Notes under the pieces: model-generated | What the model was told of the DNA's origin: nothing | The model's input: only the letters and a program-made list of their open reading frames with translations | Database searches by the model: none | Position numbers and translations under genes: made by a program | Shown: positions 2,195-38,697 of the stretch, piece by piece | Layout of the letters: every line of letters starts with the position of its first letter | Position numbering within the stretch: position 1 is the first letter of the stretch | From: Elsinoe ampelina | Lineage: Eukaryota | Length of the DNA: 64,000 nucleotides | Direction of reading: 5' to 3' | NCBI GenBank assembly: GCA_010093995.1 | Contig: ML992501.1 | Span: forward strand, 1,155,047 to 1,219,046

Positions 2195-2405
2195 TGTAAT
2201 AGAGTATCTAGATAGAGCAGGTATAATGTCTCTAAGATAGAGAAGCGATAGAGGAGAAGTATACACTATATAAATATAACAATAAATTCCTAATCTCTCT
2301 ATAGAAGGTTAGGAACTACTACTATATATACTATGTAGGATTGTAGCTAGAACAACGTATCTCTAACGTCTATCTACTAGCTATAAGTTTATAGTTCCTG
2401 TTATA
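2195..2405 (-). repeat. 3' LTR of Gypsy B
   Basis: tgtaatagag...ttcctgttata; direct repeat of 9911-10121, with visible differences being transitions. Confidence 0.95.
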
Positions 2406-3616: not shown

Positions 3617-4018
3617 GAGATTTAGAGAGTTAGAGTAGTTACTAGTATAGTCTTCGGGTTTCTAGGTATAAGTATAGGTTCCTTAGTCGATGTAATAGCT
3701 TAGAACTGTCGGAGATAGATTTTGCCTTTTAGAGTTTATAGAGTTTTTTGCTTTCTACTTCTTCTTTTTGCCTAAGTCTCTTGTTTTATAGCCCCTAGCG
3801 GAGCTATAGCTCTTAAATTGCCCTTGCTCCTTTATTAGGGGCCTATTATCCCCTTAGGTATTATTATATTATTAAGAGTCTATTATTAAGGTAGGTATTA
3901 TTAAGGAGAGTATTATTGTTTAGATAATAGAGAAGCGATATATATATACTATCTTTTCTCTTTTTCTCCTTAATCTTCTTAGACCTCTTATTCTCTCTAT
4001 CTGCTTAACTTCTCTACT

Positions 4019-4638
4019 ATAATATTAGAATCCTATAGTATTACGACCTACTATGTCCCTACTAATTAGATTAATAACTCTAGCTATACTATGTCCTTTA
4101 AGTCTCTAGAGATTGCTAATGTTATTATAGAGGCGATACACTGTCTCGGATTTAGTAGAGACTTCTCTAGTAACTATAACTATAACTATAGTAAGAGCTC
4201 TAAGCCTAAGTTCCTATAGTTCTAGACTCCTTCCGACTATGCTATGCTAGTGCACTACTGTTAGTGCAAGCCTTGTATTTACTACTAGACCGCTATATAC
4301 CTTAACTATAAGTAGGCCTAGTCCTAACGTATTTATAATAATAATATAAGTACTTTCCTCCGCTACCGTTTCTATCGATACTTCTACACTAAATGTGTCT
4401 TTATATGTTTTTATTCTACGTCGTCGCTATAATAGCTAACCTATAGTAGTATAACGTCTCTTATACTTCGCTTATTAAGAGTCTTATTTCGACCTAGTAT
4501 GCCTTTAATACTACTATCTATATTTAGAAGTCTAATAAAGATATAATAGAGTCCCTACGTAGCAATCTTATCCTTAAGCTAGTAGAGCTAGATAAGCCTA
4601 AAGATTTAGAGAATAGAGTTAAGATAGACCTCTTATAA
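4019..4638 (+). pseudogene. Possible second antisense spliced gene of Gypsy B (Cys/His-rich N-half, acidic tail)
   Basis: Frame with several intact TGT/TGC/CAC codons and only TAG/TAA stops. Candidate intron 4346-4446 (ataagt...GCTAAC ctaTAG). The last exon de-RIPs to an acidic E/D/P-rich tail. Confidence 0.4.
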
Positions 4639-7600: not shown

Positions 7601-9910
7601 AATATTATCTATATAGACGATATAGTAGTAATTAACTAAGCTATTAAGGCATTAGCTAATATATAACTAGAAGGTAGCGGGAGTATTTATAAGGCTAAAA
7701 GGTATAACTATATATTTAAAATATCTATATCTATATTAGAACGCTATCTTCTATTCGTTGCCCCCTTTAATCTAGATATAGTAGTATACGTCCCTAAGAT
7801 CTATTTTTAAGTACACCTTAGCCCTCTAGATTCTATCGAGCATCTTAGTAATAAGGGGTAAAGGGTAGTAGTTCTTTACTAAGACGTTATTAAGACCTTA
7901 GTAGTTAACGTAGAGACGTAGCAACTTGTTAGCCTTAGGCATAAAGAGGATAGAAGCCCCTACGGGGCTAGTAGAGTAGTAAATATAGCTTAGCTTTAAA
8001 TTCTTAGCTAGGTACTCTCTAAGAGTACTTAGCTCTATCTTTATAAGGGTATAAATAGGTCCCTACGGGGGTTACTTCCCTTCGATAAGTTTAATTAAGT
8101 AGTTATATAGCGCTAGAGGGAGTATAGTAATAGCTTCCTTATTGTCGAATATATCTAAGAAGTTATAGAGCTAGCTTAGGAGCCTACTCTATAACGTTAA
8201 AATATTATCTTTATAAATTACATTTAAGAAAACTATATAGTACTATAGCTACTCTAATATTTCCTTAGTAAATTCTTCTACTGTTAGAAGTGTTATATTA
8301 ACGCTAGTAGGGCAATGTCTCTACCTCTAGCTTTACTAGTCGATATCTAGGTTAATACTAAAGAGCTACGTCTAGCCTAGTACTAAGTTATATCCCTTTA
8401 TCTCTACTAACTCGAAGCGCTATTAAATCTCCTTCGTGACGCTATAGTAGTTAGTAGCTTCTACTATAAGATAGTAGTATCCGTATAAGTGTATCTTATA
8501 CTAGTCGAGGGACTTTACCCTCGTTACGCTATTAGTGTATAGGTAAACTTCTTTCTCCTTTACGTAATAGTAGTTAATAAAACAAATATTAGCTTCTAAA
8601 TCTATAAGAGATATAGCTACGTAATTAGTAGATAGAGCTCTACCTTCCTAACTAAGGTAAATATCTATTCTTAGTTAGCTTAGTAGTAGACCTCCTTCGA
8701 ATACTCCTAGCTATATAGAGGCGAGATCTATAGCTAGAGTATCTAGTTTTTTGTCTTATTACAAGGGCAGTTAGAGTAGATATAGCTAGGTTGTCTATAC
8801 CTATAGCACTTTACCTCTAAGAGGTCGAGGCGACAGAGTATTAGAGTTATATTAACTCTAGACGTAGGGTCTTTAAACCTTCTTTTTTTCTTATTTTTGT
8901 TATTCTAGAATTTCTAGTTGCCTTCCTTTAGCTTATCTACGAAGTAGCGAGAGATATATGTCGTCTTAGAGATAGCTTAGCTTCTAAATACACTCTTAAT
9001 ATAAGTAAAGTAGAAGATAGCCTCGTCTTTGCCCCTTAGGGAGTCTTAGAGCGCTATATAGCTCTATTAATATACAGGCTTTACGCCGTTAACGAGGCGG
9101 CTTACGAACTAAGCCTTATCTATAGTAGTGTTACTAATTTCCTTAGTGTACTCTTCGAGGTATTAGGCGAACTTAGTAACTAATTAGTTCGACCTCTAAG
9201 CACTATTATAGAATAGTTAAGTGTATTTCAGGGCTCGGTTACTCTTGTCTATAATACGATCTTTAATCTATTCTTAAAAGTAGCTCTAGTTCTTAGCCTA
9301 AGGTCCTACGTTGTTAATATAGCTCTCCTATATCGTAGTAAGAGATTTATCTAAATAGCTAGCTATAAACTAGACTCGATCTTTACTAGTAAGATAGATA
9401 TACTTATAGACCCTAAAGACAGCGTAGTATAATCGAATAAATGCCTTTACGTCGGCGAGGTATATATATCTCTTTAGTTTCTCTAGTACCTCTAGCTTTT
9501 ATACTTTCTTAAGGTTAATCTAAAGGGAAAGCATCTCTAGAGAGATATCTAGATTAGGAGTTCCTCGAGAGATACTATCTTAGTATAACTAATTATTGTC
9601 GTTAGACTCCTCTTACTACTCTTATGTATTAATATAGGTCCTCTTCCGAAGGGGTCCTTCGCGCTTAATTACAAGAGCTCTCTAGATCTCTATATACTCT
9701 CTATTCTAGCGGAGTTAAGCTAGCTCTTCTTAGGTAGTACGTAGCTCCTCCTTAGATATATTAGAGAGGATAGGTTCCGATTAGGTAGCTTCTACTAAGC
9801 TAGTAGATATAGCGTCTATAGCGGATAATCTATCGGTCCTTTATTAAGCTAACTACGTTAAGACTATTAACCTAGACTATCTTAACTATAGTTTTAGGAG
9901 GAATTTAAAT

Positions 9911-10121
9911 TGTAATAGAGTATCTAGATAGAGCAGATATAATGTCTCTAAGATAGAGAAGTAATAGAGGAGAAGTATATACTATATAAATACAACGACA
10001 AATTTCTAACCTCTCTATAGAAGGTTAGGAACTACTACTATATATACTATGTAGAATTGTAGCCGGAACAATATATCTCCGACGTTTATCTACTAGCTAT
10101 AAGTTTATAGTTCCTGTTATA
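9911..10121 (-). repeat. 5' LTR of Gypsy B
   Basis: Direct repeat of 2195-2405, followed by TSD tctag. Confidence 0.95.
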
Positions 10122-11408: not shown

Positions 11409-11610
11409 TGCTAAGAATATAGCTCTCTCTAGATAATTAGGCCCGAAGGTCACATGACTACAGGTTATGTAATGCTAAGTCCTAGGGATTCATAGCTATT
11501 CTTTCCTTCGGTAGATAGACTCCTTAATTAATTAACTCGTCTATCACCTAACTAGTGTGCGGATTAGTTCTATATAATACTCTACCCCTAAACGTGCCTT
11601 CTACTTAACA
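11409..11610 (+). repeat. 5' LTR of Copia C
   Basis: tgctaagaat...ctacttaaca; direct repeat of 16526-16727. Confidence 0.95.
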
Positions 11611-14600
11611 GGTTATAAGCCTAGAGCTTATAGCACAAGTATAGGATTATATATATAGTAGTTGGCCTACTACTTAAACAAAACGGAAGCGGAATTATAA
11701 TATCCCTACCGCCTTATAGTCAACTATCTAGATACCTTTAGTAAGCCTAGTAGACTATACTATAAGTCGTGAAAGATTGTACTACTTAGGACAACAAGTA
11801 GGAATAGCACTTCTATTTAGTATAGGTTTAACTCCTATAATTGTTCTACTATAGCTGCTGTTTATTAGCTAGATTAACTAAACATATTCGATTTATTAAC
11901 TTCCTCTAAGGCCTAGCTAGCCTTATAGACAACTATTAACTAGAGGTTATTAACTAAACTCGACCTTTATCTATTTATTTAATTCTCTTCTCCTTAGAGA
12001 ACTTAATTCCTAACTATAGAAGATTAGTCCTTATCTTTAAGAAGACTAGTTATTAAGCTTAATAGACTTAACTAGAGAGAATAGTTCTACTAGATAGAAA
12101 TATACCTTATAAGTAAGGATGCCTTCTAGACTATTCGTAGTTAGACTACTCCTTTAGTAACACTATTATCCGATAATACCTCTAGCTCCGTTTTAGTCCT
12201 ACCTATTAAGTCAAAGGACTAGTAAAAGGCTAATACAACTACTAAGTACTAGGTTGTCTAGTGTATCTTATAAGATAACAAAGAGTTACTATATAAGGAA
12301 GAGCTTATATTAGAATATTAGAGATTACTTAAGTCTAAGTACAAAACAAACCTTAAGGCAAGCGTAAGGGAGCTAGTTATCTAATTTGTAAACTATAAGA
12401 TAGATAAGTAGGACACTATTAATAAAGCTTAGTCCTACCTTACTAGCCTAGGAAGATAGATCGCTATTGTCTACCTAGATAAGGGTTATTAGAGGGCAGT
12501 AGAGAGATTATAGTAGCTTCTCTCTTCTCTTCCTAACGACTATAGGTTTACAAGGCAAGTAATTAAAGCAAGAGGATTAACTAATATAGATAAGGTCCTC
12601 CTTATTCTTAAGGAGGAAGAGAAACGCCTTAGTAAGCATAAGATTGCTATGTTTACTAGGGGGAGACTAAATTAAGGACCTAGTAGAAGTACAAGCTATA
12701 TATATATCCTCTACTTATAGGCTAGTTACACTATAACTAGATACTCTTAACTTTAAAGAGTATAGAGGCATATTTAGCCTTCCTATAGGATTACTAAGAG
12801 CCTACTAAGGAGGAGAAGATCTCTATTAGCTTCTAATAATCTAATTACCCTTGTTAGGCATCTCACTAAGAAGGTTAATAGACTAGAAGCAGCATCTAAG
12901 TTAAAGAAAGGTAAAGCCTTTACTACTACTAAAGGCCGGTCCGAACCTTTCTCTCTAATCTTAACTCTACTACCTAAAGTTCTATTAAGTAAAGAGGAAC
13001 TTAAGACTATAGGCTCTACATTAGAGGTATAAGGTAAGCTTCTATATTATTAGTAGATACTTAACTCTAGAGTATCTAACTATATAATAGATAAGCTAAC
13101 TCTCTTTAGGGGCCTATTAAGTAAGATACGCACTTAATAGATCTAGGTTAGGGGGGGTTACCTTTAGTTATAGTTAATAGGAACTGCTATTATTAAGACT
13201 AAGAAGGGAGATAAGATAAAGGTATAGGCTCTTTATGTACCTAATCTTAGTATTAATTTAGTCTCCTATCGTAAGCTATGTATAGATTTAGGAGTTTCTA
13301 GAGTTCTTAATTTAAATTCTTTTCTTGTTTTTAATTTATAAAAGCAGCTACTACTTAAAGCTAGAATTCGAGGGGGGGTATATATTATCTAATTCCTCTT
13401 TAAGCAGTTAGCTAATTAAAAGCTATATTCTAGATCTAAGCCCGGCTTAATTCTAGATTTAGCTAATTAGGACATAGTATTCCTTACTACTTAGCTAGTA
13501 ATTATATCACACACTAAGTATATACATCTAACCTAGGATAAGCAATATAAGGATCTTATTAATTTAAGACCCGACAACTCTAATATAGAGTACTAACTCT
13601 AGCATAGGAGATTTGCTTACCTTAGAGTTAAGAAGCTTAGAGATCTTTATAAGGTTATAACCCTTAAGAAGCTTATTAATTTAAACCATGATTTATTAAT
13701 CCTATATAAGGTCTGTTTCTTAACAAAGATAAGAAACAGAAGAGGCAAAACTTTATAGAGAAGACTAGAGGTTCTTTAGCTTATTTATACTAACATCTAT
13801 AGCCTAATTAAAGTAAGTAGGAAAGGATTTAGATACTTCCTAGAGCTTATAGATAGCTATTTAAGAATGACATAGATTATACCACTTAAGACAAGAGATA
13901 AAGCTCTATAGAGGCTTATTAAGTAGAAGCTAAGGGTTAAGAAGGAAAGTAATGCCAAAGTTAAGGTCACTAGATTAGACAATACTAGTAAGCTTAACAA
14001 GATCCTAAAGTAGTAGAAGCGCTAAGAAGACATCTATTACACAACTACTAAGCTATATAATTTAATCTAGAATAGACTAGTAGAGAAAGGCATCTAAACC
14101 TTAGAGAATAGTATAAGAGCAATACTTAAGGACTTAAAGATGCTAAATAAGTTCTAGCCTAAAGTAGTTTAGGTAGATGCATATCTAAGGAACAGGACAG
14201 TAACTAGACCTATAATCAATAATAAGCAAGTTACACTAATTAAGGCCTATATAGGCATTAAGCTATTAGTTAATTACATTAGAGTCTAGGGCTATAAGGT
14301 ATACACCTATATAAACCTAAAGTCCCTTCCTATATATAGAAGAAAAGATAAGCTTATAGACAGAGGGAGAGTAGGAGTATTCCTTAGCTATGTAGATAGA
14401 ACTAACAGGATATATAAGATATAGGCACCTAATAGGAAGGCAGTAATTGTATTACTAAATGTTAAGTTCTCTAAATTTAAGAAAGGTAGGAATATTAATC
14501 TTAGTATTAAGATTAGCACTACGAGCAATTAAGCACTAGTTAGGAGACTAATTAGTAGACTAACCTAGATCCGAGCCCGGCTTAATCCTAAGGTAGACTA

Positions 14601-16525
14601 ATTAGATTAGCCTATTTAGCAAGAAGTGCCTATAGGGAGAATCTTCTTATATATTAAGATCCTAAGGGTTAACCCTATTAACCTTATAGAATTCTAACGT
14701 AGAGAAGAGCTAATAGTTTAATCTATATTACCTAATTATATAGGTTAATCACTTAAGAGATTAAGAGATAAAGAATCTAATAATAAAGAGCCTAAGGTAA
14801 AGTATTATAGAGCATTTATTACTAAGTATATTAATTGGCAAGATAAGGTTAATAAGATTGCTATAATAGCCTCTATTAAGTAATATGTCCTAATTCTAAG
14901 AGACTACTATAAGGCTGTTACTAATCTAGTTTAGGGAAGTAAGTGGCAGGAAGTAATTAATATAGAGCTTAATACTCTAGGATTAAATAACACATAGGAA
15001 GAGGTTATCCCTCTAAAAGGATTAAACTTAGTAATATCTAAGTAGGTCTTTAATGTTAAATACAACACAGATAGCTCTATTAAGAAGTTCAAGGCTAGAC
15101 TTATTACTAGAGGCTTCTTATAGAAGTATAGTATTAACTATAAAGACACATTTACACTAATAGTTAGAGTAGATACACTAAGACTGTTCTTTACCATCGT
15201 GTATATACTTGACCTTAAATGTCATTAGGTGGATATTAATAATACCTTTATAGAATTATTCCTTAGGGAAGTAATTTATATAAGGCTACTACCTAGACTT
15301 AAGGTCTAACCTAGTATTGCCTTCTATATTCTTAGAAGCTTATATAGACTTAAGTAAGCTACTAGAGATTAGAATTAGTACTACATCTCTAAGCTTTTAA
15401 AGCTAGGCTTTACTTAGAGTAAAGTAGACCCCTATCTTCTTATATACTATAATAAGAAGATTATTTTCTTAGTTTATGTTAATAACATACTATTTATAGT
15501 ACAAAGCAAAGAGAACATCTAGTAGTTTAAGCAAGAGCTTAGTAGAATCTTTAAGATTAAGGATCTTAGTAAGGTTAGTAAAGTTCTTAGAGTTAAAGTT
15601 ATAAGGGACAGACAACAAGGAACCTTAAGGCTTAACTAGACCTACTATGTGAATGATATACTATAGAGGCTTAATATGACCTCTAACAAGGCTACTCTAA
15701 CAAAGCAGCTAATAGACAATAAGCTCCCTTAGAGAGCTTAGACTAAAGATGTAAGGTTTAGTAGAACTAAGTACTTATATGCTATTAGAAGCTAGATGTA
15801 CCTTAGTACTCTAACAAGACTAGATACTACCTTTGCCTTAGGAAGGCTTAGTTAGTTTATAGTAGATCTAATAGACAGCTATACTATTAAGATAAAGAAG
15901 ATATTAAGATATATTAGATTAACTAAAGATCTTAGTATAGTGTTTAGGAGGAATAGTAATAAGACTCTTAAGGGATATTCTAATTTAGACTATGCCTTAG
16001 ACAAGACAGATAGAGTCTCTATTCTTAGATACGTCTTTATGCTTATAGGTGGTCCTATTAGCTAGATAAGTAGGAAGTAGAAGTCTGTTTTAACCTCTAC
16101 TATAGAGGCTAAATATATAGTAATATACTCTTATATAAAGAGATTACAGTTCCTATCTTAGTTACTAAGAGACATAGACTATTATAAGATAGTTAGTTAA
16201 TCACCTTAGAAACTAACTATAAAGGAGTCTTAGAAAGCAATAATAAGATTACCCTTTACTACTAAGATTAATAGTAATAACTAGGTAGCTCTTTTACTTA
16301 TAAAGGAGCTATATACTTATAAAAGGGCAAAACACATTAATGTTGCTTACTACTACGTTAGGAGGCTATAGAGGGACTAGAGGATACAGGTTAAGTTTAT
16401 AAGGACAGCAGACATAGTAGCTAATAGGTTAACTAAGCTATTATAAGGTTAGAACTTTACGAGGTTTATAAAGTAACTTAGCTTATTATTAACCTAATAG
16501 CTTATCTATAGGAGCTAAGTAGAAG

Positions 16526-16727
16526 TGCTAAGAATATAGCTCTCTCTAGATAATTAGGCCCGAAGGTCATATAACTACAGGTTATATAATGCTAAGTCCT
16601 AGGGATTTATAGCTGTTCTTTCCTTCGGTAGATAGACTCCTTAATCAATTAACTCGTCTATCACCTAACTAGTATACGGATTAGTTCTATACAATACTCT
16701 ACCCCTAAACGTGCCTTCTACTTAATA
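16526..16727 (+). repeat. 3' LTR of Copia C
   Basis: tgctaagaat...ctacttaata (terminal CA RIP-mutated), followed by TSD gttac. Confidence 0.95.
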
Positions 16728-18000
16728 GTTACTTAATTTTATTACTAGCTTACTCCTAGTAGAGCTCTAGCCTAGCGTCGTTATAGACGCAATTATCGTA
16801 TATATCTATTACTTATCTAAGTTTAGTATCTATATACTAACGTTAACTAAGCTTAACGCTAGAGACTTTACTAATCTATTTAAAATAGATATTATAATAT
16901 TATTTAGAACGCTAAAGACGCTAGTCTTAGATAGAGAGTCTATCTTTATAAGTAAATTCTAGAGTACGCTATACTAGTACTAGAAGGCGTAACGTAAGCT
17001 TAGTACTAGTTTCTATCTATAGATAGACAACTAAACTAAAAGGCAAAACTAGACGCTAGAGTAGTACCTATACTACTTTATCGACTATTACTAGATAGAC
17101 TAGCTATACTAGGTTAAGTAGGCGCAATTCGTGTATAATAATACGTATTAAGCGTTACTATACACTACGCTAGTATAGTTCTTATTTACGTAGGAGATAT
17201 GCCTACCTAACAATATTAAGGCGCTAGCGCCGCCTAGCTACGCGCTAGCGTATAACCTGTCGGTCGATAACTAAGTATAATCTATTACCGAAACACGTGT
17301 AGAGCTTGCCTAACACCTATATAAAGTATAGAAAGACTAAGCGCTAGCCTATAATAGAGATTAATAAGCAAAAGTCTTCTATAATAGCGACAAGGTTATA
17401 CTTAGCACTAAGAACCTTCGTAGCGCTAGACCTAGCTATAAGCTATTAGCTAAGTATATTAACCCGTTTATAATTATATAACAAATTAGTACGTAGGTAT
17501 ATAAGCTACACTTACTAAACAAAATAAAGCTAATCTATAACGTCTTTAACGTTACGCTACTAGAGCTATATAGGCGTAGTAAGGGCGTATACCTACTGCC
17601 TCTAGAGGTAAAAGGGCAAGAAGAATATATTATTAAATATATCCTTAGCAAGGGCTATACTAGCACTCTAAAGGCGCTATACTACCTAGTAAAGTAGTAG
17701 GGTTACTCTATAGAAGAAAGCATATAGGAGCTAGTAAAAAACCTTATAAACGCTAAGGAATTACTATATAAATATAAGGTAGCTTAGCGTAAGTATAGCG
17801 CTAGCTAAACACTCTAGATATACTTAGGATTAACAAGTTAAAGGTATAAATTTTAAAGTAAAGAGCACCTAGGCGTAGCGCTAGGTTAGCTCGGGGTATT
17901 ATTAGCTTACGTAGGGAAAACGCTAGCGTAGTAAAGACTATAGAATTATACTAAAGCGAAGGGGGCGTAGTATAGGTATAGCGCCCTAGCTTTCCCTATC

Positions 18001-18871
18001 TTAACTATCTATATTATTCACCTTAGTCTTATTCTTATTATTCTTCTTAACACTATTAATATGCCTAGTTAGTACTCTCGTAGTATTATTAATTACCTAT
18101 ATAGTAGTAGCTTACTTATTCTTAGTAACTACCTATAAAGAAGTTAGTATAACTTAGGCGTTATAGGGGCGCACTTCTAGACTTATATAACTAGCTAAAG
18201 CCTTAAGTATAAAGCTAGTATTACTAATTATACCTAGGCGTAGCACCTTCGCTAGCTACTTAGTGTCGACTTTAGAGGCAAAGGGCGTAGTAATAGCGCT
18301 ATTATAGCGTAAAGAAGTTACACTATTACTATTACTCTTATTAACTACTTTACTCTTGCCCTTAGCGTTAGACTTGCTCTACGTACGCTTAGCACTAGCC
18401 TTCTTATATACATAGTTAGCATAGGTAGTAATCTAGCGCTTTAGGAGAATAATGTCCTTCTTAGGAGTAGTAGCGTCGTTATAGAGTAGTATATACGTAG
18501 TAAAGTATTTATCCTAGAGCTTCTTAGTAGTAACTTAATCCTTAGAGTTAAGCTTAGTAGGCTACTAAGGTTAGTATAAAGTAGGCGTAGTATAGGTGTA
18601 GAGTATACCTAGTAGTAGTGTTTATTCCTATAACTATAACGATTATAGCGGGTAGCTTTAGCCTTAGTAATCTAGTAGAGAAGATCCTTAATAGAGAGTA
18701 TACTATCTTTAAGCTAGAGGTACTTATTAATAGTAATAGTATAGTATAAGCATAGTATAGAGTACTAGTTCTAGTTAGTAAAATTGCTCTTATAAGCTCT
18801 ATAAAAGGTTAGTGCCGGCGTAGTATAAGTACTATATATAATACTTACTCCTTAGGAACTTTAGGAGCTAT
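18001..18871 (-). pseudogene. Antisense spliced accessory gene of Gypsy A; six-Cys zinc-cluster-like protein with acidic tail (RIP-damaged)
   Basis: Start ATA (from ATG) GCT CCT AAA = MAPK at 18871. Introns: 18848-18799 (GTAAGT...CTAAC...TAG), 18608 to 18562 or 18565 (GTATAC...CTAAC...TAG), and a third ending at 18133 (TACTAAC ttctttaTAG). Exon 2 de-RIPs to C-x2-C-x21-C-x9-C-x2-C-x6-C, with the first Cys an intact TGC. Confidence 0.7.
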
Positions 18872-19528
18872 AGTTATTAAAGTATATAAGCGTATAGGAG
18901 GTAAGCTAGCGTAGAGCTAGAATAACAAAAGGAAAAAAAATTTACTATATAGGTGCTACGCTAGGTTAGTAAACAAACAACTAAATAGATAAGCTCGATA
19001 GCTAGATCTATAGTAGCGTAGACTTAGTATATACGCTAAGCCTCCCCTACTAGCCCTTAGGCTAGTAAGACCTAGTCTATACTATATAGTACCTAAAATA
19101 GATTACTAGTATAGTATTAGACCTACGTAAGTATAGAGCTAGTATTAAGTAGAATACTTACGTAAAGGAAGTATTATAAAGGAGAAAAGAAGAAGAGAAG
19201 GAGAAGAGAAAGATATATACCTAGCTCTAAGCTAAGACTAATCTAGAGAATAATAGGTAGTAGTATACAATAATAGGTAGATTCTTATATATAAAAATAA
19301 TAACGTAAGAGCGCTATATTCTATATATAAAGATTATACTATTATTACTATATCTAGTATACGAAGAATAGTATAGGCTACTATAGGCATACTATATATA
19401 CGAAGAGTACGCTACGCCTAAGAAGCGCTAGTAAGACGCTCTTTTCTAGTTTTCTCCTATACTAGATTTTCTAGGTTTTATTAAGGCTTATAGGTGTAAG
19501 GGCATACCTCTCGAAGGGGAAGAATAAT

Positions 19529-19726
19529 TATAAGAACTAACGTAGTAAGTACGCTATGCTAGCTTACTCTAGAGATACTATTCTCTATAGGAGAATAAAA
19601 CACTCCTTGCCTATAGAATAGATAGAGTAGAGATTAGTCTTACAATAATTAAGAGTACACTAGTATAATACCTGTTCTACTCCTATATACTTGTCTTTCT
19701 AGCTCTAATATTCTATCTTCGTTATA
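19529..19726 (+). repeat. 3' LTR of Gypsy A
   Basis: 198 bp, tataagaact...cgttata (TG..CA RIP-mutated); preceded by PPT; reverse complement of 20661-20858. Confidence 0.92.
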
Positions 19727-20858
19727 GTTCTACTCTAAACGAGATAGATATACTAGAAGTTCTACCTTAATTAGAGATAGGTTCCCCTAATAGAGTACTT
19801 TCGAGCGTAGCTCTAGCGTAGTATAGATAATAAGCTATATATAGTAGGCGTCGTCTAGGAGTAGTACTATCTTAATATAGAACTTATAACTATCGAGGAA
19901 CATATAGAAATTAGTAATTAACTATTCTCTATACTAGCGTAACGTAAAGAACTTTACTATGTAGCTATTACTACAGTTTTTAGAACTCTAGACTTAGTCC
20001 TAAAGCTAGGACTATATTAGGCTCTATAAGGGTATAACGCTAGCGCTCTTAGCGTATAAGTTCTAATTATAGCTAAGCTAACCTTTTAAGTAGCTAGTAG
20101 CTATATAGCACTAAGTAACTTCTTTAAAGTAGATATTTAGTACTATCTTAAAGACGTTATTATATATATATATAAATTCCTTAACTCTTACTATAATAGT
20201 AAACTCTAAGGCCTTAGAGTAGTATAAGTTTAGCATATACTCTCTTATAATTTATAGATTTATTAGATAGATATCGTTAGGTTATATATTGTCGAAATAA
20301 CTACGTAGCACTAGCGCTATAACTAGGAAGCAACTACTAAGTATATTCTTAAGCTAAGTAATACAAGTAAGAAGCGCTTTATATATAGTATTATTTTCTA
20401 TGTCGGCTATACTTCCTATAGAAGCTATATTAGCGTAGTAGAGTCTTAGCGCTAGCTCTTCTCTAGCCTAGCGATCTTTAATAGGAGTTGTCTCTAGAGT
20501 TATAGCTAATTCGGTAAATGTCTTACTAATAGCTAAGCTATTAGAGAGTTGTCTATACTAGTACTACTCTAGCGGTAGTTAGTCGTTTCGCTAGCGCTAA
20601 GTATAGAGTGCTATCTTGTCTATATAGCTCTATTTAATAGGATATAAGAGAGATTAGAATTATAACAAAGATAGAATATTAGAGCTAGAAAGATAAGTAT
20701 ATAGGAGTAGAATAGGTGTTATACTAGTGTACCCTCGATTGTTATAAGACTAATCTCTACTCTATCTATTCTATAGATAAGAAGTGTTTTATTCTTCTAC
20801 GGAGAATAGTATCTCTAGAGTAAGCTAGTATAGCGTACTTACTATATTAGTTCTTATA
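19727..20858 (-). mobile_element. 5' fragment (LTR + leader/gag) of Gypsy A', a second copy of family A in opposite orientation, interrupted by A
   Basis: 20661-20858 is the reverse complement of the A LTR. 19727-20036 is the reverse complement of window bases 1-310 (same length, transition differences). Confidence 0.9.
20661..20858 (-). repeat. 5' LTR of Gypsy A'
   Basis: 198-bp inverted copy of 19529-19726. Confidence 0.92.
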
Positions 20859-21517
20859 CTAATACTAAGGAACTTATAAAGGTTAGAGAGCGCTTATTAG
20901 TCTATTATCTAGATAATTAGTACAACGCTAATAAGACTAGCCTATTCTATATAATAATACTAGATTAGTTACTAGCCTTATAACCTCTCCCTAGTACTAA
21001 GCGCTATAAAAAGTAAATCTCTATACTTTTTACTTATAACACCTCTAGTACTTATAAGCTAAAGCCTTAGATAATTAGCTATGCCTTAAGGCCTTATTGT
21101 TTTAAGGCAGCTAGTATTAATATTAAGTACTAGAACATGTTCTAGCGAGTAAATAAGACTACTTAGATAACTAGTACTATCTTTAAGCAATATCTAAGGT
21201 AGTTAAATAAGTAAGTTTATAGTAGAAAGGTAAGTAGTAAACTCTTTATATACTAATATAAGTATATACTAATTTTGTACTTAGATAGCGCTTCTCCTTA
21301 ATAACTTTTTAGTATATAAGTACGCTATTAAGGCTATTTAATATAAACTTTATAACATTAAGGTAATCTAGTTACTAGCTAATTTAATAAGTAAATACTA
21401 ACTACTTAATTAAGGCATTATCTACTACTTTAAGGCCTACTATTAGAAGCGCTAGCTTACTTATATACTAGAGAAGATTAAGCTCTTACGCGATTCTCTA
21501 TTAACTATTAATATCCT

Positions 21518-21704
21518 TATTAAAGCCTTGTATTAAAGCTACGTATGTCGTAATATAGAGAACGCCTATCTAACCGAATAGTCCGTTAGTAGTAGAACTA
21601 ATTACTATTAAGCTCTAGGCATAAGCGCCGTATAGGATATTTAAGTATATTACATAAGTAGGACTAGCCGCTACTAAGTGCTGCTCTAATACTAAGCTCT
21701 TATA
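21518..21704 (-). repeat. 3' LTR of Gypsy D
   Basis: Direct repeat of 28021-28207; adjacent to PPT. Confidence 0.93.
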
Positions 21705-22118
21705 ATTGCCTTCTCCTCTAGGAGAGCTGTCCTTAGCTCTCGACTAGAAGTATATAACGTATAGTGTTATTCGGAGGTAATATAGACGTAAGGTAGTTAA
21801 GGCATTTTTGTAAAGGCCTTATATATGTCTCGTATAATGTCTAGTAGTAGTAGTCCTAGGAATCTAGTTCCTAGAGAGGCGTTTATCTAGTCGCTATAGC
21901 GCTAAAGCTAATCGGCAGTAATAATATTACTTTTCTTAGAATTCCTAGTAGTATTATAGGAGACATATACCTTACGCTAGCGGCTATAATAAAGATATAG
22001 TGCACTAGAGGTTAGTCTATATTATCTCGTTGTTTCTCCTTATATTCTTCTTTTCTACCTAAAATATATTTATATTTTGTTAATCTCTTACTATATAAGT
22101 GTACTACCTATAACTATT

Positions 22119-22914
22119 ATATTATCTAACTCCGGCCCCTCCGTAGCTAATACTCGTAGTGTAAGGTCTACTAGCGTCTAGGGAGCTATTACTACTAGCG
22201 CCGACTCTATAACTCTCTTACTTCCTAAAGAGAAGGCCGATACCTATACTAGGTATACTAATAGCGTTGCTGAGAGTAAGCTAATAGAGCTCTTATAAGG
22301 GACGTAACTAATTTATAGTAGGTTATATTTATACTAGAGGCAACTTTAGTATCTTCTTCTATTGTAAGTACGAATACTACGCCTATAGTAAGTATATATA
22401 TAAGCCGCTCCTATCTATCCTATATAACTTATATATCGACGCCTTTAACATAGTTACTAAGCTTAAGGCCCCCGACTAGGCTAGCATTACTGTAGCTAAG
22501 AAGTATATATACGCTATAGCCTATAAGAACGTTCCTAAGGTTAAGAAGTTTAAGACTATACTTAAGGTATACTACACTAATAAGAATAAGGTTGTTAGCG
22601 AGGTCTTGACTCCTTATATAGGGCCTATAGGCGACTTACTTAGTAGTGTTATACTCGAGCGTAAGAAGGTTAAGGAACTATAGAAGATTAGGTATAGCCT
22701 TTATAGCTTAATTATTATTAACAAGGAGGTAAGTTAGACTATACTCTATATACGTTATAAACATAGCTAATAGGTTTAGATAGTGTATAACTCTAGTAGT
22801 TCTACTACTAAAATCGACTATGTTATAGCTAGTAAGTAGCTTATAGCCCCTATAGTACCTATAGGGGAGAATCTTAGTATAGAGGTAAATAAGGAGAATA
22901 GTAAGGATAAGTAG
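22119..22914 (+). pseudogene. Antisense spliced accessory gene of Gypsy D; six-Cys zinc-cluster-like protein with acidic tail (RIP-damaged)
   Basis: Introns 22276 to 22318/22321 (GTAAGC...CTAAT...TAG) and 22729-22779 (GTAAGT...GCTAAT...TTTAG). The middle exon of about 135 codons has only two TAG stops. De-RIP reading TCTRC-x9-C-x12-CEYCARGKHVCEPLP; the last exon ends in an acidic run before TAG 22912-22914. Confidence 0.7.
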
Positions 22915-25900
22915 GCATATACGAGACAAGTACGCGTCCTTAGCGCTATATCTATAATAAGGCCTTACGTAGAGTATAATAGAGTATAGAGTTTAGGTTA
23001 ATACCTGTAATAGTAGCGTAAGTATAGCGCTTTATTAAAATATATTTCCCTAGGTAAGGAGTCTACTCTTTGCTCTATTTATATGTTTATATAATCTATC
23101 TACTTATATGCTCTATAATCTACACCTTTAGTAACCTTTCTTAGCTACTCTTAGCTACGACTTATATATAGTAATTAGCTCTCTTATATTTATGTAATTC
23201 TCTTTAGGTTCCTAGCTATTAAACTTAATAGGCTAGTCCTTTTACTTTACTAAGTAGAATACCTTACTCTTTGTAGTTCTTCTACCTAGAATCTCCTCTA
23301 CTATCTACTTATCTACTTTGTTAGTAAGAGGTATACTCTCTTCTAGCTCCTTACTAGCTCTACCTATCTATAGTTTAAGAAGAGATATATAAAAGACATT
23401 ATAGATGCAATACTAACTTAGTAAAGCTAGGCGATACACCTACGATCTAATTGTGTTAAGTATGCGAAATAGGCTAAGGAATTGTAGTTCTATCTTCTTC
23501 TTTAGTATAGGTAGCTATAAGTTCTTAGCTAAGAGTAGTACTAAGTTACCTACGCTATATACCTTTAGTATATACTTCCTATTATAGTACTTAGCCTAGT
23601 AAGTAGAAGCCTCTTTCTATTACTCTATTAGCTTTATATATGTATCTCGTAAGTGTTACGCTAACTCTACTACTACTAGTACTTTTCTCTCTAAAGTCTT
23701 ATTCTAAGACTTAATAGCTATTACCTCTAACTCTAGATAGTAGCTATATATTATTTAGAAGAGGCTTATACGTAGCGTAGTATAAACGCTATTATTGCTT
23801 ATAAATTCCGCTTGTAATAGACGTTTAGCCTAGTTGTTCTATAGCTCTATATAGTAGCACCTTAGGTACTGTTCTAACGTCTAGTTTTACTGCTTAGTTT
23901 AACCGTCTATCTATAGGTAAAAGGCTATACTAAGCCTACGCTTTATACGCGTTTTGTAATAGAATTTACTCTAGAACTAGCTAGTAAAGACCGATCCTCG
24001 ATTGCTTACTATTCCTCTTAGGACACTATAATAGTGAATAATATAGTTATATAGGATCTCTACTAGCTCTATAGACGTATACTTCTTAGTAGTAGAGACA
24101 TATAGTAACATCTTAGTATAATAGTCTATAATTACTAGTACTATATTATAGACGCTACTACCTTACTTACTTAGTAGTAAGTTAGTAATAAAATCTATTA
24201 TAATTTCTTACTATAGGTAGTCTAGTATTAGTAGCGTACGTAGCTCGCTATAGAGGCAATAGTAGCGCGCCTTGTACTTCTAGCAAACTTAGTATAACTA
24301 TATATAGTTATTAATATCTTTTCTTATAGTTAGCTAGAAGTATTTCTATAATAGGAGCTTAAGCGTCTTATTCTTACTAAAGTAACTAGCCTATTCGCCG
24401 TTATAATATATATATAGTACCTACGCCTTAAGCGTACTATTATTTAGAATAACTAGTAACTCTTTATAGAAGAGAAGATTATCTTATATATTCTATAGCG
24501 CTCTACTCTTGTCTCTACTACTTTCCGCTTGCGAATGTAGCTTTATAATCTTAGAGTCTTATCCTTATAGTAGCTCTACTACTAACATTAGGTTAGTAGA
24601 TAGATCTTTAAAGGGATCCTCTCTTATAGTTACTATAACTACGACTTACTAGGTCGTTATAAGCCTCTAGAAGTTCTTAGAAGAGAAGTCGCTACTATAC
24701 GGCGTATAGGCGGCCTAGGCCTATCCTAGAGTAGCCTCGTATATAGCGTAGATATGTCTAATAAGCGGAGTAGCTTCCTTAACATTAGTAGTCTAGTCCT
24801 ATATACGAAGCTTATTCTAAAGAGTAGAAAGGAGATATAACACCTCTTACTCTTCTACTATATAGTTAGAGCGCCTCGAGGGCGTATTAGCTAGGTTCCT
24901 CGTGCCTAGCTAATACTCTATTATAAAGTTAAAAGTAGCAAGGAAGGTAGCCTAGTAAGCTTATTAGCCGTTTAGCTATTTTAGCTTTATAAATCCTTAG
25001 AGATTGTTATAGTTAGTAAGTACTTAAATTATATATAAGACACCTTCGAGGTAGTATTACTATTGCTTAAATACATATACAATTACTAATAGCTCTTAGT
25101 CGTACATCTCGTAATTGTACTTAGCTAGGATAAACTTCTTTAACTAAAAGGCTATTAGGTGCTAAGCACTGTCGAATAGTTAGGATAGAATTACTACCGC
25201 TATAAACTTTAATATATCGCTTTTAATACGTAGAGGCAGCGTAGAATTATAGTAGTAGAGGATAGAGGCACGCGTAAATATGTCTCTAATGTCCTTAAAT
25301 ACCTACTATTCGCTTATGCCCTACACGAAAGAGCTATACTTATAACCTTTTACTAAGTCTTTAAGGAGGCTAGAGAGGAAAGTAATAATCTTAGAGTAGT
25401 ACTATATAAAGCAACGATAGAAGTTTATAAAGCTAGTAAACTACTAGACCTTATAATAACTCTTTAGCCTTAGCTAATTCTTAATTATAGTTACTCTACT
25501 AGGATCTATTAAGACGCCTATAGTAGAGATAATATAGCTAAGAAATTCTATCTCCTTAGTAAAGAATTTACATTTCTTAAGGTTAATATATAAAGTAAAC
25601 TTCTGTAGCTTTACTAGAATCTTATAAATGTAATATATATAGTTCTCTCTTAAATTGCTATAGATAAGAATATTATCGAGGTAGATAATATAGATAGTGT
25701 TAACTAGCCTACCTAGCGCCTTATTAATATACACTTAGAAGGTAGCTAGGGCGTTAGTTAATCTAAAAGGCATAACTAAGTACTTAAAATAGCTATAGCA
25801 CATACGGAATATAGTCTTCTACTTATTGCTACGCTTAATAGAGATTCTATAATAGGCATCCTTAAGATCTAGCTTCGAGAACTACTAGGCTTGCCCGAGC

Positions 25901-28020
25901 TAATTAAGCGTCTCGCTAATAAGTAGAAGCGGGTAGTAATTCTTAATAGTTATCTTATTTAAGCCCCGATAATCTATATATAAGCGTAGACTACTATCTT
26001 TCTTAGGCACGAATAGGATAGAAGTACTTACCTTGCTTATAGAGCGCCTAATTTACTCGTTTAATTAAGTAGTCTCGAGATAGTTCTTAAGCACTTTAAG
26101 CTCTTTAACCGAAAGATTGTATAAGGGCTAGAATAGAGGCCTTCTACCCGGCTCTAGCTTAATTACATACTTAGCGCCTAAGAGGCGTAGTAGATTTATA
26201 ATATCCTTATAGATAAAGATATTAAAGAACTCTACGAACTCTAATAGTAGAGCCGAGTCGCCTACGGCACGAGTATAGTTCTTAGACGAAGTCTATACTA
26301 TAGTATATACTCTCGGCTCGTTCTTAAGGTCCTTTATAAAGTCTTCTAGTTTACGTAAGTAAACTATATGTAAGAAGTAGCTATATAACTAGTTGTCTAT
26401 AGCGCTATCTATAATTACGTACTGTCTTCTCTACTATAGGCGCTCTAAAATAACTAGAGGGCCTAGTTCTAAGTCTATAGCGTAGAAGAGGCCAATTATC
26501 TCCCTAAGGTCGCTATAGAAGTCTACTAGGCGTATATAAAGCTAGTACGCGCCGTAGTAGAATCCGGCTTACTCTATAAAGGAAAAGATACTTAGATACT
26601 AAGTATGCTTAACTCTTAGTAGATTATAACGAAGAGTAAATACCTAAGATATAAGATTAACTTCTATATAATTGTCTATAAGGAACATATAGTTTTTACG
26701 CCCTATAGGCGCTACAATAGTACTATAATAGAGCAGCGATAGATAAGCGTTAATTAAGAGAGAAGAAGAGCTTAGTTATGCTCTTTAGCTAAGCCCTTAG
26801 AGTTTCCTAACTTAGAGTTATTAGACTTGTCTATAGTAGTAACCTTATATACCGCCTAAGACTCGCTATTCTTCTATAGGTGCTTTAACCTATACTCCGG
26901 CTTAATATAACTAGTTTTGCTATAACTATAGCACTTAGCGTCTCTCTTCTACTTATTAGAGAAACTTCTCTACCTACTAAACTATTTAGTAGATAAGTTA
27001 GTAGCTTTACGCTTATAGTAAGCTTAAGAGCTACTACTAGACTAGTAGTAGTATTCTCCTTAGGGGCTACTATAACTACTATACTTACGTAGGTAGTTAC
27101 TTTTATCTTTCTATATAGTACACTTACTACTAGTATAGTCTATAGACTCGATATATAAGTCTAAAGAGACTAACTTCTAGCGCGTAGCTAGAATAGTATA
27201 GTGTTTAATAATAGTAATACGTAGTGTAGGCTATAGCTTAGCAAGGAGATAGTGCACTCTCTACTCTTTAGAGTAGAGAGCTAGTTACTTCTTAAGGGTA
27301 GCGAGTTCCGAGGTAAAGGCTTAGATAGATTATCCCTTATATTATTAGGCTCCCTTGTATATAAGAGTTATACGTACTTTACGATTAATAGAGTTATTAA
27401 CTATGTCCTATATAAACTAGCGGAATTACTTCTATATATAGTCTTCTAGGCTATTTACGTAGTAGTAGTAGTACTATATCTTATCTAGCTTACCTACGAG
27501 AAATATAACTCTATATAGCACCTTCTACTAGTTAGTAGAATAAGCCTTAGAGGCTAGAGTAAAGATAACCTTAAGATTCTTTAGGAAGAATCTTACCTCT
27601 TTTAGAGTCTTACCCTAGTAGGGATAGAGTTCTCTTAATTAAGGTTGTCTAGAGGACAGCCTTACGAATAGTTCGCCGCTACTATATATACTCTATATAC
27701 TAGCATTACTTGCTATAGGCTTAGTAGAAGCACGCGAGCTATAGTTAAAGCCTCCTTAGTAGTATCCTATATTACATATATAGTATATTTACTTAATCTC
27801 TTCCTCGAGGCTCTAAGCCTTAAGCTCTAGCTCTAAATACTTATACTTAGTACGTAGGTATAGTAGCTACTCTATAAGGGTCTCTTCTTCCTCTAGAGGA
27901 GTCTACTCGATAGAGTTTATCTCTATAATATTAATTATATAAGGCGCTAGTACCTCGCTAATAGAGTTCTAGTTGTCTATAGAGTCTAATAGATTACAAC
28001 TATAGGGGAGCAATTAGAAC

Positions 28021-28207
28021 TATTAAAGCCTTATATTAAAGCTATATATGTCGTAATATAGAGAACACCTATCTAACTAAATAGTCTATTAGTAGTAGAA
28101 CTAATTGCTATTAAGCCCCTAGTATAAGCGCTACGTAGGATATTTAAGTATATTACGTAAGCGGGACTAGCTACTACTAAGTACTACTCTAATACTAAGC
28201 CCTTATA
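28021..28207 (-). repeat. 5' LTR of Gypsy D
   Basis: Direct repeat of 21518-21704. Confidence 0.93.
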
Positions 28208-28869
28208 GTTCTTAAGGCTATCTATAATACTATTTAGGCTTAGAATAAGGTTTTAGTAATAACTATCTAGAACTACTAGCTTTACTCTACCTTACTTAGT
28301 GTAGTTTAAGGCCTAATTACGCTTAAGGACTAGTAGAGGAAGTATAGTAATGTTCTACTAAGGACTACTAATATAGAGGTAGAGGTAGTAGTATCTTAGT
28401 AGCTATATACTTTATAAGCTAAGAAGTATATCTATCTAGCAATAATAGTAGCTAGCCTATTATAACTAGAGGAGGAGGTAGTAGAGAATACCTATAAAGA
28501 GATTAGTAAGGCGTTCCTTTAGTAGATTACTAACTAATATACTCTAGCTAAGGAAGAGAAGAAGGAAGAGAAGAAGACTATAGAGAAGTTTCACTATATA
28601 AAGCACTCTAAAGCTCTTTAAGCACTTGTATAGCTTTAGCTATATAAAGAGCAGTTAGAGGAGTGCAACTTTAAGCTGCTAAAGGAGGTAGAGGAGCATT
28701 ATAAAGTTGTTTAAGCACGCTTAAGAGCCTCTATAAGGCAGCTAGATATCCACTAGTTCTTTAGAGGTAGCTAAGCATAGAATTGAGCAATTTAACGGCT
28801 ATTACACCACCTTATCTGACACACCGTTTGACTGGCTATACCGTTAAAGGAGCACCGGTACCGCGCTAA

Positions 28870-29387: not shown

Positions 29388-31498
29388 ATGGGTCTCTCCT
29401 TCCAGCTGGCTAGCGCCGCGGCTCTGCTTGTTGTGGCAGGATCTACTGAGCCCATTCCAGTACAATCAGTGCTGTTCAAACAGCCACTCGAGGTGGAGCA
29501 TGGTGGCGTCCACAACATACATGTCGAATACCAAGGCGACGTTGACGGCGAGCTCACAGTCGCGTACGGCCCCTGCAATTCCGGATCTGCTCAAGCGGTA
29601 CACCACATTGTTGGTAGCACTTACGTGGGATCACATCATCGGGCCGCACGTCATCTCGACCATCATGAACGACGACCTACTCGCTTCGTCTGGGTCACGC
29701 CGTCCACGCTACCGGCAGGGTGTCTCCATGCATTCCTCGAGGGTCAGCACGTCGGACGTTCTGCCGAGATTATGACAAAGCATCGGCGCGTACGCCGGCA
29801 AGCGACCTTTGCCAGTGTCGCAGATCCGATGGGACCCTGGTTCGATGGCGTGGCGTACTTACAACAGAAGCAACCAAACGAGACTTTCGTCGCATCGACC
29901 AAGAACAAGCGGTTTGGCATACTGGGGGCTGGCATGGCCGGCTTGACAACAGGGGTAAGTCAGCATGATGATGTCGCTACGACCCCGACTGACTCTGCCA
30001 GCTCATGCTCGACTCTGTGGGTGTCCGCAACTGGAAGATCTTGGAGTCGTCCGACCGTCTAGGTGGCCGTATGCTTACCAGCTACTTGAATGGTACTCGA
30101 CCAGAAGAGGGCCAATACCACGAGATGGGACCAATGCGGTTTCCTTACGAGATCACCGACCCGGACACGAACGAGACATTCCCTATCAATGATCAGAAGA
30201 TGGTCTACCAGGTCGCAGATGTTCTCAACAAGATCAATGAGGGTAATGAGGAGCTGCAAGTCAAGTTCATTTCTTGGATCCAGTCTTCCCCGAATACTCC
30301 GGTCAGCACCTACAAGCGACGTCCGGACGGAACGTTCCCAGGAAAGACTGAGGTGGCTACCAACCCCGATTACGCTGAGCCAGTCGTCTATTCTAACGAG
30401 ACGGCGGCCGCGCAAGCTCAACAGGCCCTCGATGACTTCAAGGCGTTGACGCCTGAGCGTATTAAGTTCTACGCCACTGACCTGTTCCGCGCCCACAAGC
30501 AAGCTGTCGAGCAAGGTCTCTTCGACTGGTCGGAGGTCGAATACCTGCGCAAGGTCATTGGTACACCTCTCAATACCACGGATGAGGTGACACCTTCTCA
30601 GGTCGTCTGGCCGATGTGGGAATACGAAACAGTCTACTTCCTCGCCAACAAGTGGAACACCATCCAGGGTGGTCTTTCTCGTATGCCCGAAGCTTTCAGA
30701 CCAATCGTCCAGGACCGTATTCAATTTGACTCCAAGGTCTTCTCTGTCCAGCACAACAGTCAGAACAACACATTGTCAGTCTCCTATCGACCCCGAGGTA
30801 GCAACCCTCGCGAGGTCACACCCACCACCGAGCAATTCGACTATGTCTTCAACAGCGTTCCCTTCAACCTGCTCAAATTCTGGGAACTCCCTCGCTACTC
30901 CTCCCTCATGCGCCGCGCCATCGACCGCACTGTCTTCGGCGGCGCCGTCAAGGTCGCAATCCAATACAAGACCCGCTTCTGGGAGCACCTCAAGCACCCC
31001 ATCCTCGGCGGCTGCGGCCGCGTCAACATCCCCCTCGTCGGGCAGATCTGCTACCCATCATGGGACATCAACGCCACTGGTCCGGGAACCATGATGGCGT
31101 CTTACATCCCCGACTACGACGCTACAGTCGCCTGCTCCATGTCCGACGACGAGCACATCGCCTATGTACAGAGAGCCATGGTAGCCATCCACGGGCAAGT
31201 CGCGGAGGACAACTGGACGGGCAACTGGGCGAGGCACTGCTGGGAGCATGATGAGAACCATGCTGGAGCGTTTGCGTTGCCGATTGTGCCGCAGCAGCAG
31301 TTGTATCTGCCGGCTTTCTTCCATACGGAGTTCAATACTGTGTTTATTGGGGAGCATACTAGCTATACGCATAGTTGGGTGTTTAGTGCGTTGGAGTCTG
31401 CGGCGAGGGGTACGGTGCAGTTGTTGTTGGATTTGGGGTTGGTGGATGAGGCGAAGAAGGTCAATGAGGAGTGGATGGCGAGGTGGATACAGTTGTAG
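29388..31498 (+). CDS. Secreted L-amino-acid oxidase / flavin-containing amine oxidase precursor
   Basis: Signal peptide; intron 29955-30001 joins GILGAGMAGLTTG to LMLDSVG...ILESSDRLGGR (FAD-binding GxGxxG and GG motifs); EMGPMRFP; C-terminal FIGEHTSYTHSWVFSALESA. Confidence 0.92.
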
Positions 31499-37750: not shown

Positions 37751-38697
37751 CGAAGGAAGACAGACGGAGGCGTCAGGGTATATCTACCCCTCTTTTTTGG
37801 CGTTATCTCAAGCTCTCTGAGCCACCGTTGTCCAGCTGCCTTGAGAGAACGAGGTACCAGTACGAAGGGACGGCTGTGGGTATTAGCTAATAACAAATAG
37901 TGCTGAGAAGAGCTGAAGAGAGCGACAGGCCAAGCAACAGGAATGAGCGACGAGGATCGAGTCAGCAAAGAAACAACAGCGCATGCATGAGCGAGGGTAA
38001 AGTGTTTTTCTCAAGGTGTCAGATTTAGAGTAATGTGGTCGTCCGTGAGAGAGCCTAAGGAGGGCAAAGGGCCACTGAAACGTTCTAGACTGCGCTAGCG
38101 TGGCTGTCTCGCTCTCTGCCAATTTTGGCTTGCGCTCCATCCGCATGCATGCCCACGGGACAGTTCTCGCTCCTGATCGTTCGCCTGCATGTTACACTGG
38201 TACTCGCGTCCAGGTCCGCTGTTGAGATGGTGGACAGCTGAAGAGAACGGTTCGAGGGTCGGGACCAGACAATACGTGTTTAAAGTTATGTTAAGCAAAT
38301 GAGCGACAGGAGATATCTCGGCAACTACAGTAGGTACTGGGACACGAAGACGCGGCAAGGAGCCGGATCAACAGAGATTGTTGATCATTTGTTGATCGCG
38401 TGGGTCCCCACCAGTTCTGCCTGGTGTGTACGGGAGTAGTGAGAGAGAACGCGAGGTGAAAATGGAGGCAGAACTTAGAAGCTGCATTCAGGTGTTCGCT
38501 GCGCCTCACGGGCTTTATTCTCATGCAATTCCCGCATCCTTCCAAGCACTGCCAACGAACGTGGCTTGTCAGCAAGAGAATGCCCAGACGACAATGTTGA
38601 TCCGATTGGGCGCGGAGGAAGCCAAAAGACGGCGCTTGTGTCTGCAACGCACAACGAACATGCAGCAGTCGCTTTCCTTCCACACACCCGTGACTCC

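Follow-up and report, generated by a model that had tools for sequence, protein, structure and literature searches.

An antisense six-cysteine gene in a RIP-inactivated chromovirus of Elsinoe ampelina, on a probably exchangeable cassette with a history apart from pol

The DNA analysed here, hereafter the window, is a stretch of 64,000 nucleotides from the 28 Mb genome of the fungus Elsinoe ampelina, whose positions 1-29000 form an AT-rich, RIP-mutated block of nested LTR elements with a TpA/ApT ratio of ~2. Within this block, the interval 22119-22914 raises the question of whether a reading frame lying antisense behind a heavily damaged pol is a gene, and whether its history is that of the element which carries it. 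The initial annotation had regarded it as a divergent member of a module present in two neighbouring elements, Gypsy A and Gypsy B, the module being either old or acquired more than once. The carrier, Gypsy D, is a chromoviral Ty3/Gypsy LTR retrotransposon with its pol on the minus strand. It is bounded by a 5-bp target-site duplication (left copy 21513-21517, right copy 28208-28212, with two transitions between them) and by an LTR pair on the minus strand, the 187-nt 3' LTR (21518-21704) differing from the 5' LTR (28021-28207) by 25 transitions and one transversion. The RIP-damaged pol (23080-27000, minus strand) can be read in the chromoviral order RT-RNase H-integrase, with an integrase zinc finger, an SH3 domain and a C-terminal chromodomain. 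The chromodomain of the damaged copy scores slightly below the cut-off (23.7 bits against 25.1, E 4.5e-05), and PF00385 is present in the best database match to this pol. Among the copies of D, A and B, columns mixing Arg, His, Cys and Tyr show loss of CpG as well as of CpA/TpG, so that mutation is not confined to the classic CpA target.

The surroundings are themselves composite. Gypsy B, on the plus strand, extends from before position 1 to ~19736 and is interrupted by Gypsy A (2195-10121) and by an LTR element at 11409-16728, which lies inside the Gypsy B pol and is distinct from Gypsy B, the integrase preceding the RT as read from the sequence (Copia order). Inverted repeats (19521-19736 with 20651-20866, and 1-310 with 19727-20036) suggest that another B-like fragment, oppositely oriented, is present and that D was inserted within it or next to it. 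From position 29000 onward, the G+C content jumps sharply from 32-37% to 51-62%, and open reading frames of the amine oxidase (29993-31498), peptidase C1-like (49408-50496), arylsulfotransferase (56452-58212) and MFS (59932-61374) families are found; the long frames at 35873-37783, 42212-44872 and 46711-48693 gave no Pfam match.

The gene of D lies on the plus strand between the pol end and the 3' LTR, and is hence antisense to pol. A DNA search of the same genome with this gene returned 43 matches, the best 30 of which were examined and are all RIP-damaged. A three-exon model fits the ends 22119 and 22914. Exon 1 (22119-22275), with a RIP-damaged start and a low-complexity N-terminus, carries Cys1 (22245) and Cys2 (22254); a predicted phase-1 intron of 46 nt (22276-22321) falls within loop 1 of the cluster; exon 2 (22322-22728) carries Cys3 to Cys6 (22330, 22369, 22378 and 22399) followed by a helical region; and a predicted phase-0 intron of 45 nt (22729-22773) precedes exon 3 (22774-22914), a short tail that is acidic in the intact homologue described below. 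The 3' end of exon 3 is uncertain because its final TAG could be a RIP product, and an alignment signal between exon 3 and the first 175 residues of that homologue was absent. The two canonical introns put forward in the initial annotation are well preserved as predicted GT-AG introns, their donors and branch sites being kept in 28-30 of the 30 copies (intron 1: donor GTAAGC in 28, branch site in 30; intron 2: donor GTAAGT/C and branch site in all 30). An alternative in-frame intron at 22388-22453, whose donor is present in 28 of 30 D copies, was rejected because Cys6 would be lost, because the donor is missing in four of four examined copies of a second version of the gene (D2, see below), and because D and D2 align colinearly with the intact homologue over this interval. 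After splicing of intron 1, the Cys or Tyr codons are spaced Cx2Cx9Cx12Cx2Cx6C. True Cys codons remain at just two positions, 22254 (4/30 copies) and 22369 (9/30), the four other positions being TAT/TAC in all 30, and TAT/TAC is the RIP product of Cys codons. The start codon is likewise ATA in 30/30 copies; an ATG is retained in one D2 copy near the equivalent place. The predicted product would comprise about 230 residues, with a six-cysteine cluster and a helical middle, the acidic tail being that of the intact homologue.

As had been remarked earlier, the middle exon is almost devoid of stops despite heavy RIP: two, both TAG, are found per 135 codons in 29 of 30 copies, and the thirtieth has a 5-nt deletion. 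Exon 2 has the fewest stops of 11,442 overlapping 135-codon segments in the 29-kb RIP block (mean 14.4), and none of 2000 dinucleotide shuffles contained two or fewer. The age read into this feature does not follow from it. RIP creates stops out of Gln and Trp codons, and stop density tracks the Gln and Trp content: the pol frame shows 9.8 stops per 135 codons, against 9.0 Gln and Trp residues per 135 codons in intact related pol. The scarcity of stops in exon 2 is best read, from its codon content, as a scarcity of Gln and Trp codons and not as a sign of age.

An intact homologue indicates that the frame encodes a protein. A profile built from 23 exon-2 translations of natural copies (19 from among the 30 D loci and four from D2, stops entered as X) yielded two matches among 1.84 billion proteins. 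The top-scoring one (P0001) is a tandem-repeat protein without a cysteine cluster and was discarded as an artefact. The other is the hypothetical protein D9617_77g092410 of Elsinoe fawcettii (KAF4546987.1, E 5e-15), which has 213 residues, true cysteines at all six positions with exactly the spacing of D, seven basic residues in the 37-residue cluster and 18 acidic ones among the last 38; its RIP-compatible identity with exon 2 is 61-66%. It is intact, unlike the gene of D, and represents a third version of the cassette, about equally far from D and D2. In a separate search, the best match of the D pol among 8000 scored candidates was KAF4546986.1 (87-93% RIP-compatible), the two proteins having consecutive accessions in the same species and contigs of equal size. 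The accession order and the equal-sized contigs suggest that the E. fawcettii gene lies next to pol, presumably with the orientation and introns of D. Since the accession of this intact homologue adjoins that of the closest pol, the gene appears to be real and to travel with the D pol lineage. We consider it almost certain, on the strength of these comparisons, that 22119-22914 is a RIP-inactivated copy of a genuine accessory gene of a chromoviral family.

A word-based protein search with KAF4546987 matched only itself, and a metagenome scan with it found none; a search with an eight-sequence alignment gave 28 further unnamed proteins, of which the eight inspected were all of the type of L151, a related element locus, and neither the word-based nor the alignment search returned a Botrytis-named match. 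A single-sequence fold of the homologue reached a pLDDT of 43.5; a further structure model, with a mean pLDDT of 58.8 and cluster loops below 50, has helices after the cluster. The weak model of the homologue gave no match at E <= 0.001 in a fold search, and a sequence search of the PDB gave a single match at E 0.33, that is, no solved-structure match. In the ESM Atlas, unnamed ascomycete clusters were found at 0.91-0.92, while DUF8257/DUF8414 and DUF3716, below 0.9, are leads only; DUF3716 matched one family member at E 0.12.

The cluster invites comparison with Gal4-type Zn(II)2Cys6 domains (PF00172), whose pattern is Cx2Cx6Cx5-12Cx2Cx6-8C. Both have six cysteines arranged as two CxxC pairs and two singles, in two CxxC-plus-C halves that are complete in the intact homologue and marked by Cys or Tyr codons at the six places in D and D2. 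They also share a second half of the form Cx2Cx6C, the presence of basic residues, helices that follow the cluster and an acidic tail. The first loop, however, is x9 in D, D2 and KAF4546987 and six in the Gal4 type, and the D product is a small protein without a middle homology region. The initial annotation had placed the x9 loop closer to the Gal4 spacing, which is correct as a number and fails as a sign of kinship. Pfam Zn_clus matched neither KAF4546987 nor nine related exons at E values up to 10; on a profile of 22 host Zn2Cys6 sequences KAF4546987 scored 0.2 bits, a value reached by 122 of 200 shuffles; and loop 1 ranges from 6 to 21 across the whole family. By these profile scores, the D-type cluster falls outside PF00172 and resembles Zn(II)2Cys6 in its pattern alone.

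The family to which it is better compared was found behind related pols. Of 84 loci with such pols, 42 include the end of pol together with 500 nt or more of following sequence; the full six-cysteine motif occurs antisense in eight of the 42 (two of them near duplicates), in sense in none and in no shuffle, and is absent from the other 34. Loop 1 in the eight loci measures 6, 9, 9, 11, 11, 15, 20 and 20. A profile trained on the intact genes of six of ten candidate loci (L157, a near duplicate of L151, and L111, L142 and L155 were left out), gave KAF4546987 20.7 bits, a score reached by none of 500 Cys-fixed shuffles, whereas 22 host Gal4-type clusters reached at most 6.6 bits. Five of the six members pass leave-one-out, and L151 fails (90/300). 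Further antisense clusters were seen beyond the eight: L111 (4487-4680, minus) and L142 (7113-7215, minus) have atypical loops behind pol, and L131 a RIP-damaged cluster in the same place. At L155 (5664-5844, minus), an antisense cluster in a related element has the canonical Gal4 first loop of six and is split by a predicted intron; it is a possible bridge to host Zn2Cys6 factors.

What, then, of the genes in A and B? That of A (2931-3560, plus strand, 3' end undefined) reads Cx2Cx20Cx9Cx2Cx6C at 3048-3180, with introns from 2943 and at 3189-3235, and that of B (18200-18880, minus strand, ends approximate) reads Cx2Cx21Cx9Cx2Cx6C at 18752-18617, with introns from 18848 and 18608. Both models are readings of RIP-damaged copies, with true Cys at two of six positions in A and one of six in B, and the second donor of A is GT in only 1/12 copies. 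In each, one predicted intron precedes the cluster and another, of phase 0, follows Cys6 at a distance of two codons. The latter is common to A, B and five intact genes (L087, L089, L093, L095 and L111), and this position links A and B to the element-borne family. It is lacking in D and D2; the intron positions of D do differ from those of A and B, as had been noted, one lying in loop 1 and the other ~110 codons past the cluster. Direct RIP-aware alignment to the D homologue gave z 1.0 for A and 0.0 for B, a comparison of low power in which D itself gives no signal to other members, while D against its own homologue reached z 11.9; A and B showed no signal to any intact member either (best z 1.9). 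A 'YYTxKxK' word common to A and D was dismissed as evidence of homology, being at shuffle level (16.9 against 16.3). The proposal that D is a divergent member of the same module is thus sustained indirectly, by the element-borne profile, and finds no direct counterpart in similarity between A or B and the D homologue. A tree built from transversions alone in RT, RNase H and integrase (72 sequences, 585 codon columns, backbone weakly supported) places A next to B as its sister (100) and unites D with D2 in a separate clade (100). The six-cysteine carriers are scattered over it and do not group by loop length; at L087 and L095 the cassette lies behind a second pol end in the contig, hence the pairing of RT and cassette is uncertain there. 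This spread over distant pol lineages supports the view that the module is old, and common ancestry of the D gene with those of A and B appears likely. Within the A family, the antisense gene forms two sub-haplotypes over window positions 3000-3400, L039-L044 on one side and L036-L038, L045 and L046 on the other, with several differences not of RIP type; this may be the D/D2 situation in a less pronounced form.

The D/D2 pattern bears directly on the history of the gene. The second cassette version, D2, was found through weak matches in the search of the same genome, which holds at least 33 D and at least six D2 cassettes. The 39 scored matches fall at 81-100% (33) or 71-73% (6) with no intermediates, and no third version was seen among the at least 39 and 40 matches scored. 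In D2, each of the six Cys/Tyr positions is retained, as is the 46-nt intron at the identical site in loop 1. With RIP transitions set aside, elements of the two versions align colinearly and scarcely differ in gag, pol and LTRs: a scan of the whole element per 200 nt gives mostly 0-2% transversions outside the cassette (single bins up to 7%), 6-9% on its flanks and 17-28% across ~22000-23000. By region, the transversion difference is 0.021 in the LTR, 0.086 at 21708-21990, 0.148 in the upstream DNA at 21991-22118, 0.26 and 0.18 in the introns and 0.19 in exon 2. The region upstream of the gene on the polypurine-tract side (21705-22118, plus strand), a putative promoter, thus differs between the versions together with the gene. 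Counted at codon positions 1-2, the transversion mismatch of the D/D2 pair is 0.002-0.006 in pol and 0.31-0.34 in exon 2; for D against E. fawcettii it is 0.109 and 0.33-0.34, respectively, and for D2 against E. fawcettii 0.29 in exon 2. By this measure the D and D2 cassettes would have split about as long ago as either from E. fawcettii, on backbones that are recent sisters.

Recombinants between the two were also identified. L025 and L028 carry a D cassette (177/177 and 172/179 diagnostic sites) and a D2-type pol end (8/9 sites), the switch falling at 23013-23047, with 10/10 D-like sites up to 23013 and 8/9 D2-like sites from 23047; the diagnostic sites were defined without six loci with insertions or misaligned flanks and without the four test copies. 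In a comparison by 500-nt bins past the junction, the whole L028 element (L192) differs from the D2 copy L032 by nine transversions in 2183 nt of pol, against ~20% in the cassette. In L192 (G000:C9:880000-889900), ~700 nt of pol (window 25730-26428) are replaced by ~660 nt of non-aligning sequence. As copies of one element carry either of two very different versions, the gene would have been exchanged as a unit; and the two versions on one gag-pol-LTR backbone, together with the recombinants, show a cassette history separate from that of pol. Exchange of the cassette between element lineages is, in our judgement, very probable. The earlier suggestion of more than one acquisition therefore holds as exchange between retrotransposon lineages, and not as repeated capture of a host gene. 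Taken as a whole, the best explanation, to which we assign a probability of roughly 0.72, is that of a RIP-killed accessory gene, antisense to pol, in an exchangeable cassette with a history apart from pol; on present comparisons, the D cassette is best described as an old, fast-evolving, exchanged module.

The same divergence could arise in other ways. Recombination may have evened out gag, pol and LTRs between two old subfamilies that each retained its cassette, with no cassette brought in from outside. The outcome, separate histories, would equal that of exchange, and the two differ in direction and source. D2 has its own slight pol-end haplotype (nine diagnostic sites in 23040-24100) and pol divergence is patchy along the element, which fits such homogenisation, but ~5.5 kb flanking a 1.3-kb island on both sides would have to be swept to near identity, and one exchange of the island, aided by the common LTR, is simpler; we regard homogenisation as rather unlikely, though as the most serious of the competing histories. 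That the cassette merely evolves very fast, under relaxed or positive selection and without exchange, is largely refuted and retains very little probability. The cassette divergence between D and E. fawcettii is indeed three times that of pol (0.33 against 0.11), and a third-position excess is absent; the cassette-to-pol ratio between D and D2, however, is 50 to 150 and not 3, introns and upstream DNA are as divergent as exon 2, recombinants exist, and the 39 scored matches include no intermediates. Independent capture of fragments of host Gal4-type factors by D, A and B would explain their differing intron sites and the lack of detected direct similarity, and would suit the x6 loop of L155 and the leave-one-out failure of L151. 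It sits poorly with a D homologue that scores on the element-borne and not on the host profile, with the phase-0 intron that A and B share with five intact genes whose pols are distant, and with a place and orientation that are identical throughout, and is judged distinctly improbable.

With exchange preferred, the mechanism can be outlined. Recombination near the pol end would occur by template switching between co-packaged RNAs of related elements, a route drawn from established retroelement biology, or by DNA recombination. Template switching during reverse transcription would move the cassette with its upstream region, and the common LTR would let the swap close. The cassette would carry its own antisense promoter on the LTR side and encode a putative small nuclear protein with a zinc cluster, a helical dimerisation region and an acidic tail, acting on its own element. 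By analogy with the Zn(II)2Cys6 domain, whose first loop is shorter, the cluster would bind two zinc ions, and in the nucleus the protein could be a transactivator of its own element or a factor countering silencing. The odds on such a regulatory role are, in our estimate, even. In exon 2, D and D2 show no third-position excess of transversions (positions 1/2/3, 22/28/33 of 128), nor do four-fold sites (4/18) differ from position 2 (28/128; p = 1.0), and purifying selection therefore lacks support beyond the cysteines and short motifs. The near-identical LTRs of D and D2 (0.021), despite strongly different clusters, do not fit tight cognate LTR binding. The absent codon-position excess, an LTR that does not co-vary with the cluster and a weak structure prediction all speak against a regulator. 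The protein may alternatively be secondary, the antisense transcript tuning the element via double-stranded RNA, or the protein may be structural or RNA-binding. Such roles have been raised for antisense ORFs in general, in the available part of PMC7264820, and agree with the weak codon-level constraint between D and D2. At ~30% transversion mismatch, D, D2 and E. fawcettii have nevertheless retained the frame and the six cysteines with their spacing, and we hold this alternative to be unlikely.

An extra gene of this kind has a precedent in brtn, for which the source is reportedly Zhao 2011 (Virology 417:248). In Boty-like elements of Botrytis, brtn is an additional antisense gene between pol and the 3' LTR (PMC8365987, PMC7264820, PMC4227169, each as available in part), and Fig. 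S1 of PMC8365987 presents brtn and other extra ORFs. The D gene, which lies between pol and the 3' LTR in most copies, shares with brtn its antisense place in a fungal chromodomain-bearing Ty3/Gypsy element; the likeness is one of layout, D being compared with the description of brtn in these sources. Plant LTR elements with antisense 3' additional ORFs, namely Grande (gene23), RIRE2, Retand and PvRetro13, resemble D in position, orientation and retention in most copies; a regulatory role was proposed for these ORFs, their function being unassigned, and GENE23 is nuclear (PMC7264820, available part). They belong to plant lineages, and the word 'zinc' does not occur in the available part of PMC7264820, in contrast to the six-cysteine cluster of D. 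Similarly, 'zinc', 'antisense' and 'Gal4' are absent from the available part of PMC3248453. In the literature on brtn-type elements, as far as its texts were available, no report of two exchangeable versions on one backbone was found, and a search to which most subscription papers were closed returned nothing on six-cysteine antisense genes or cassette exchange in fungal elements. The antisense layout is therefore already known, and two exchangeable cassette versions on one backbone are apparently new.

The antisense extra genes of LTR elements are without an assigned function in the available part of PMC7264820, and the D gene provides a concrete domain hypothesis for them. Should the protein have no regulatory role, the cassette gene would still be a well-documented passenger. 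A classification by RT overlooks that these elements have a second part with its own inheritance, and the antisense six-cysteine family accounts for one class of orphan 'hypothetical proteins' among annotated fungal genes. The locus offers a natural swap, in which one gag-pol and LTR is joined to either of two cassettes that differ as much as those of separate species, and since intact members exist, the question of the role becomes testable by comparing cassette versions. It can tentatively be hypothesised, at less than even odds, that fungal chromoviruses possess their own old regulators of zinc-cluster type, which differ from the Gal4-type factors of the host and are encoded on an antisense cassette traded like an allele between element lineages, and that two versions were co-amplified because the cassette would set the switching-on of the element or its escape from silencing.
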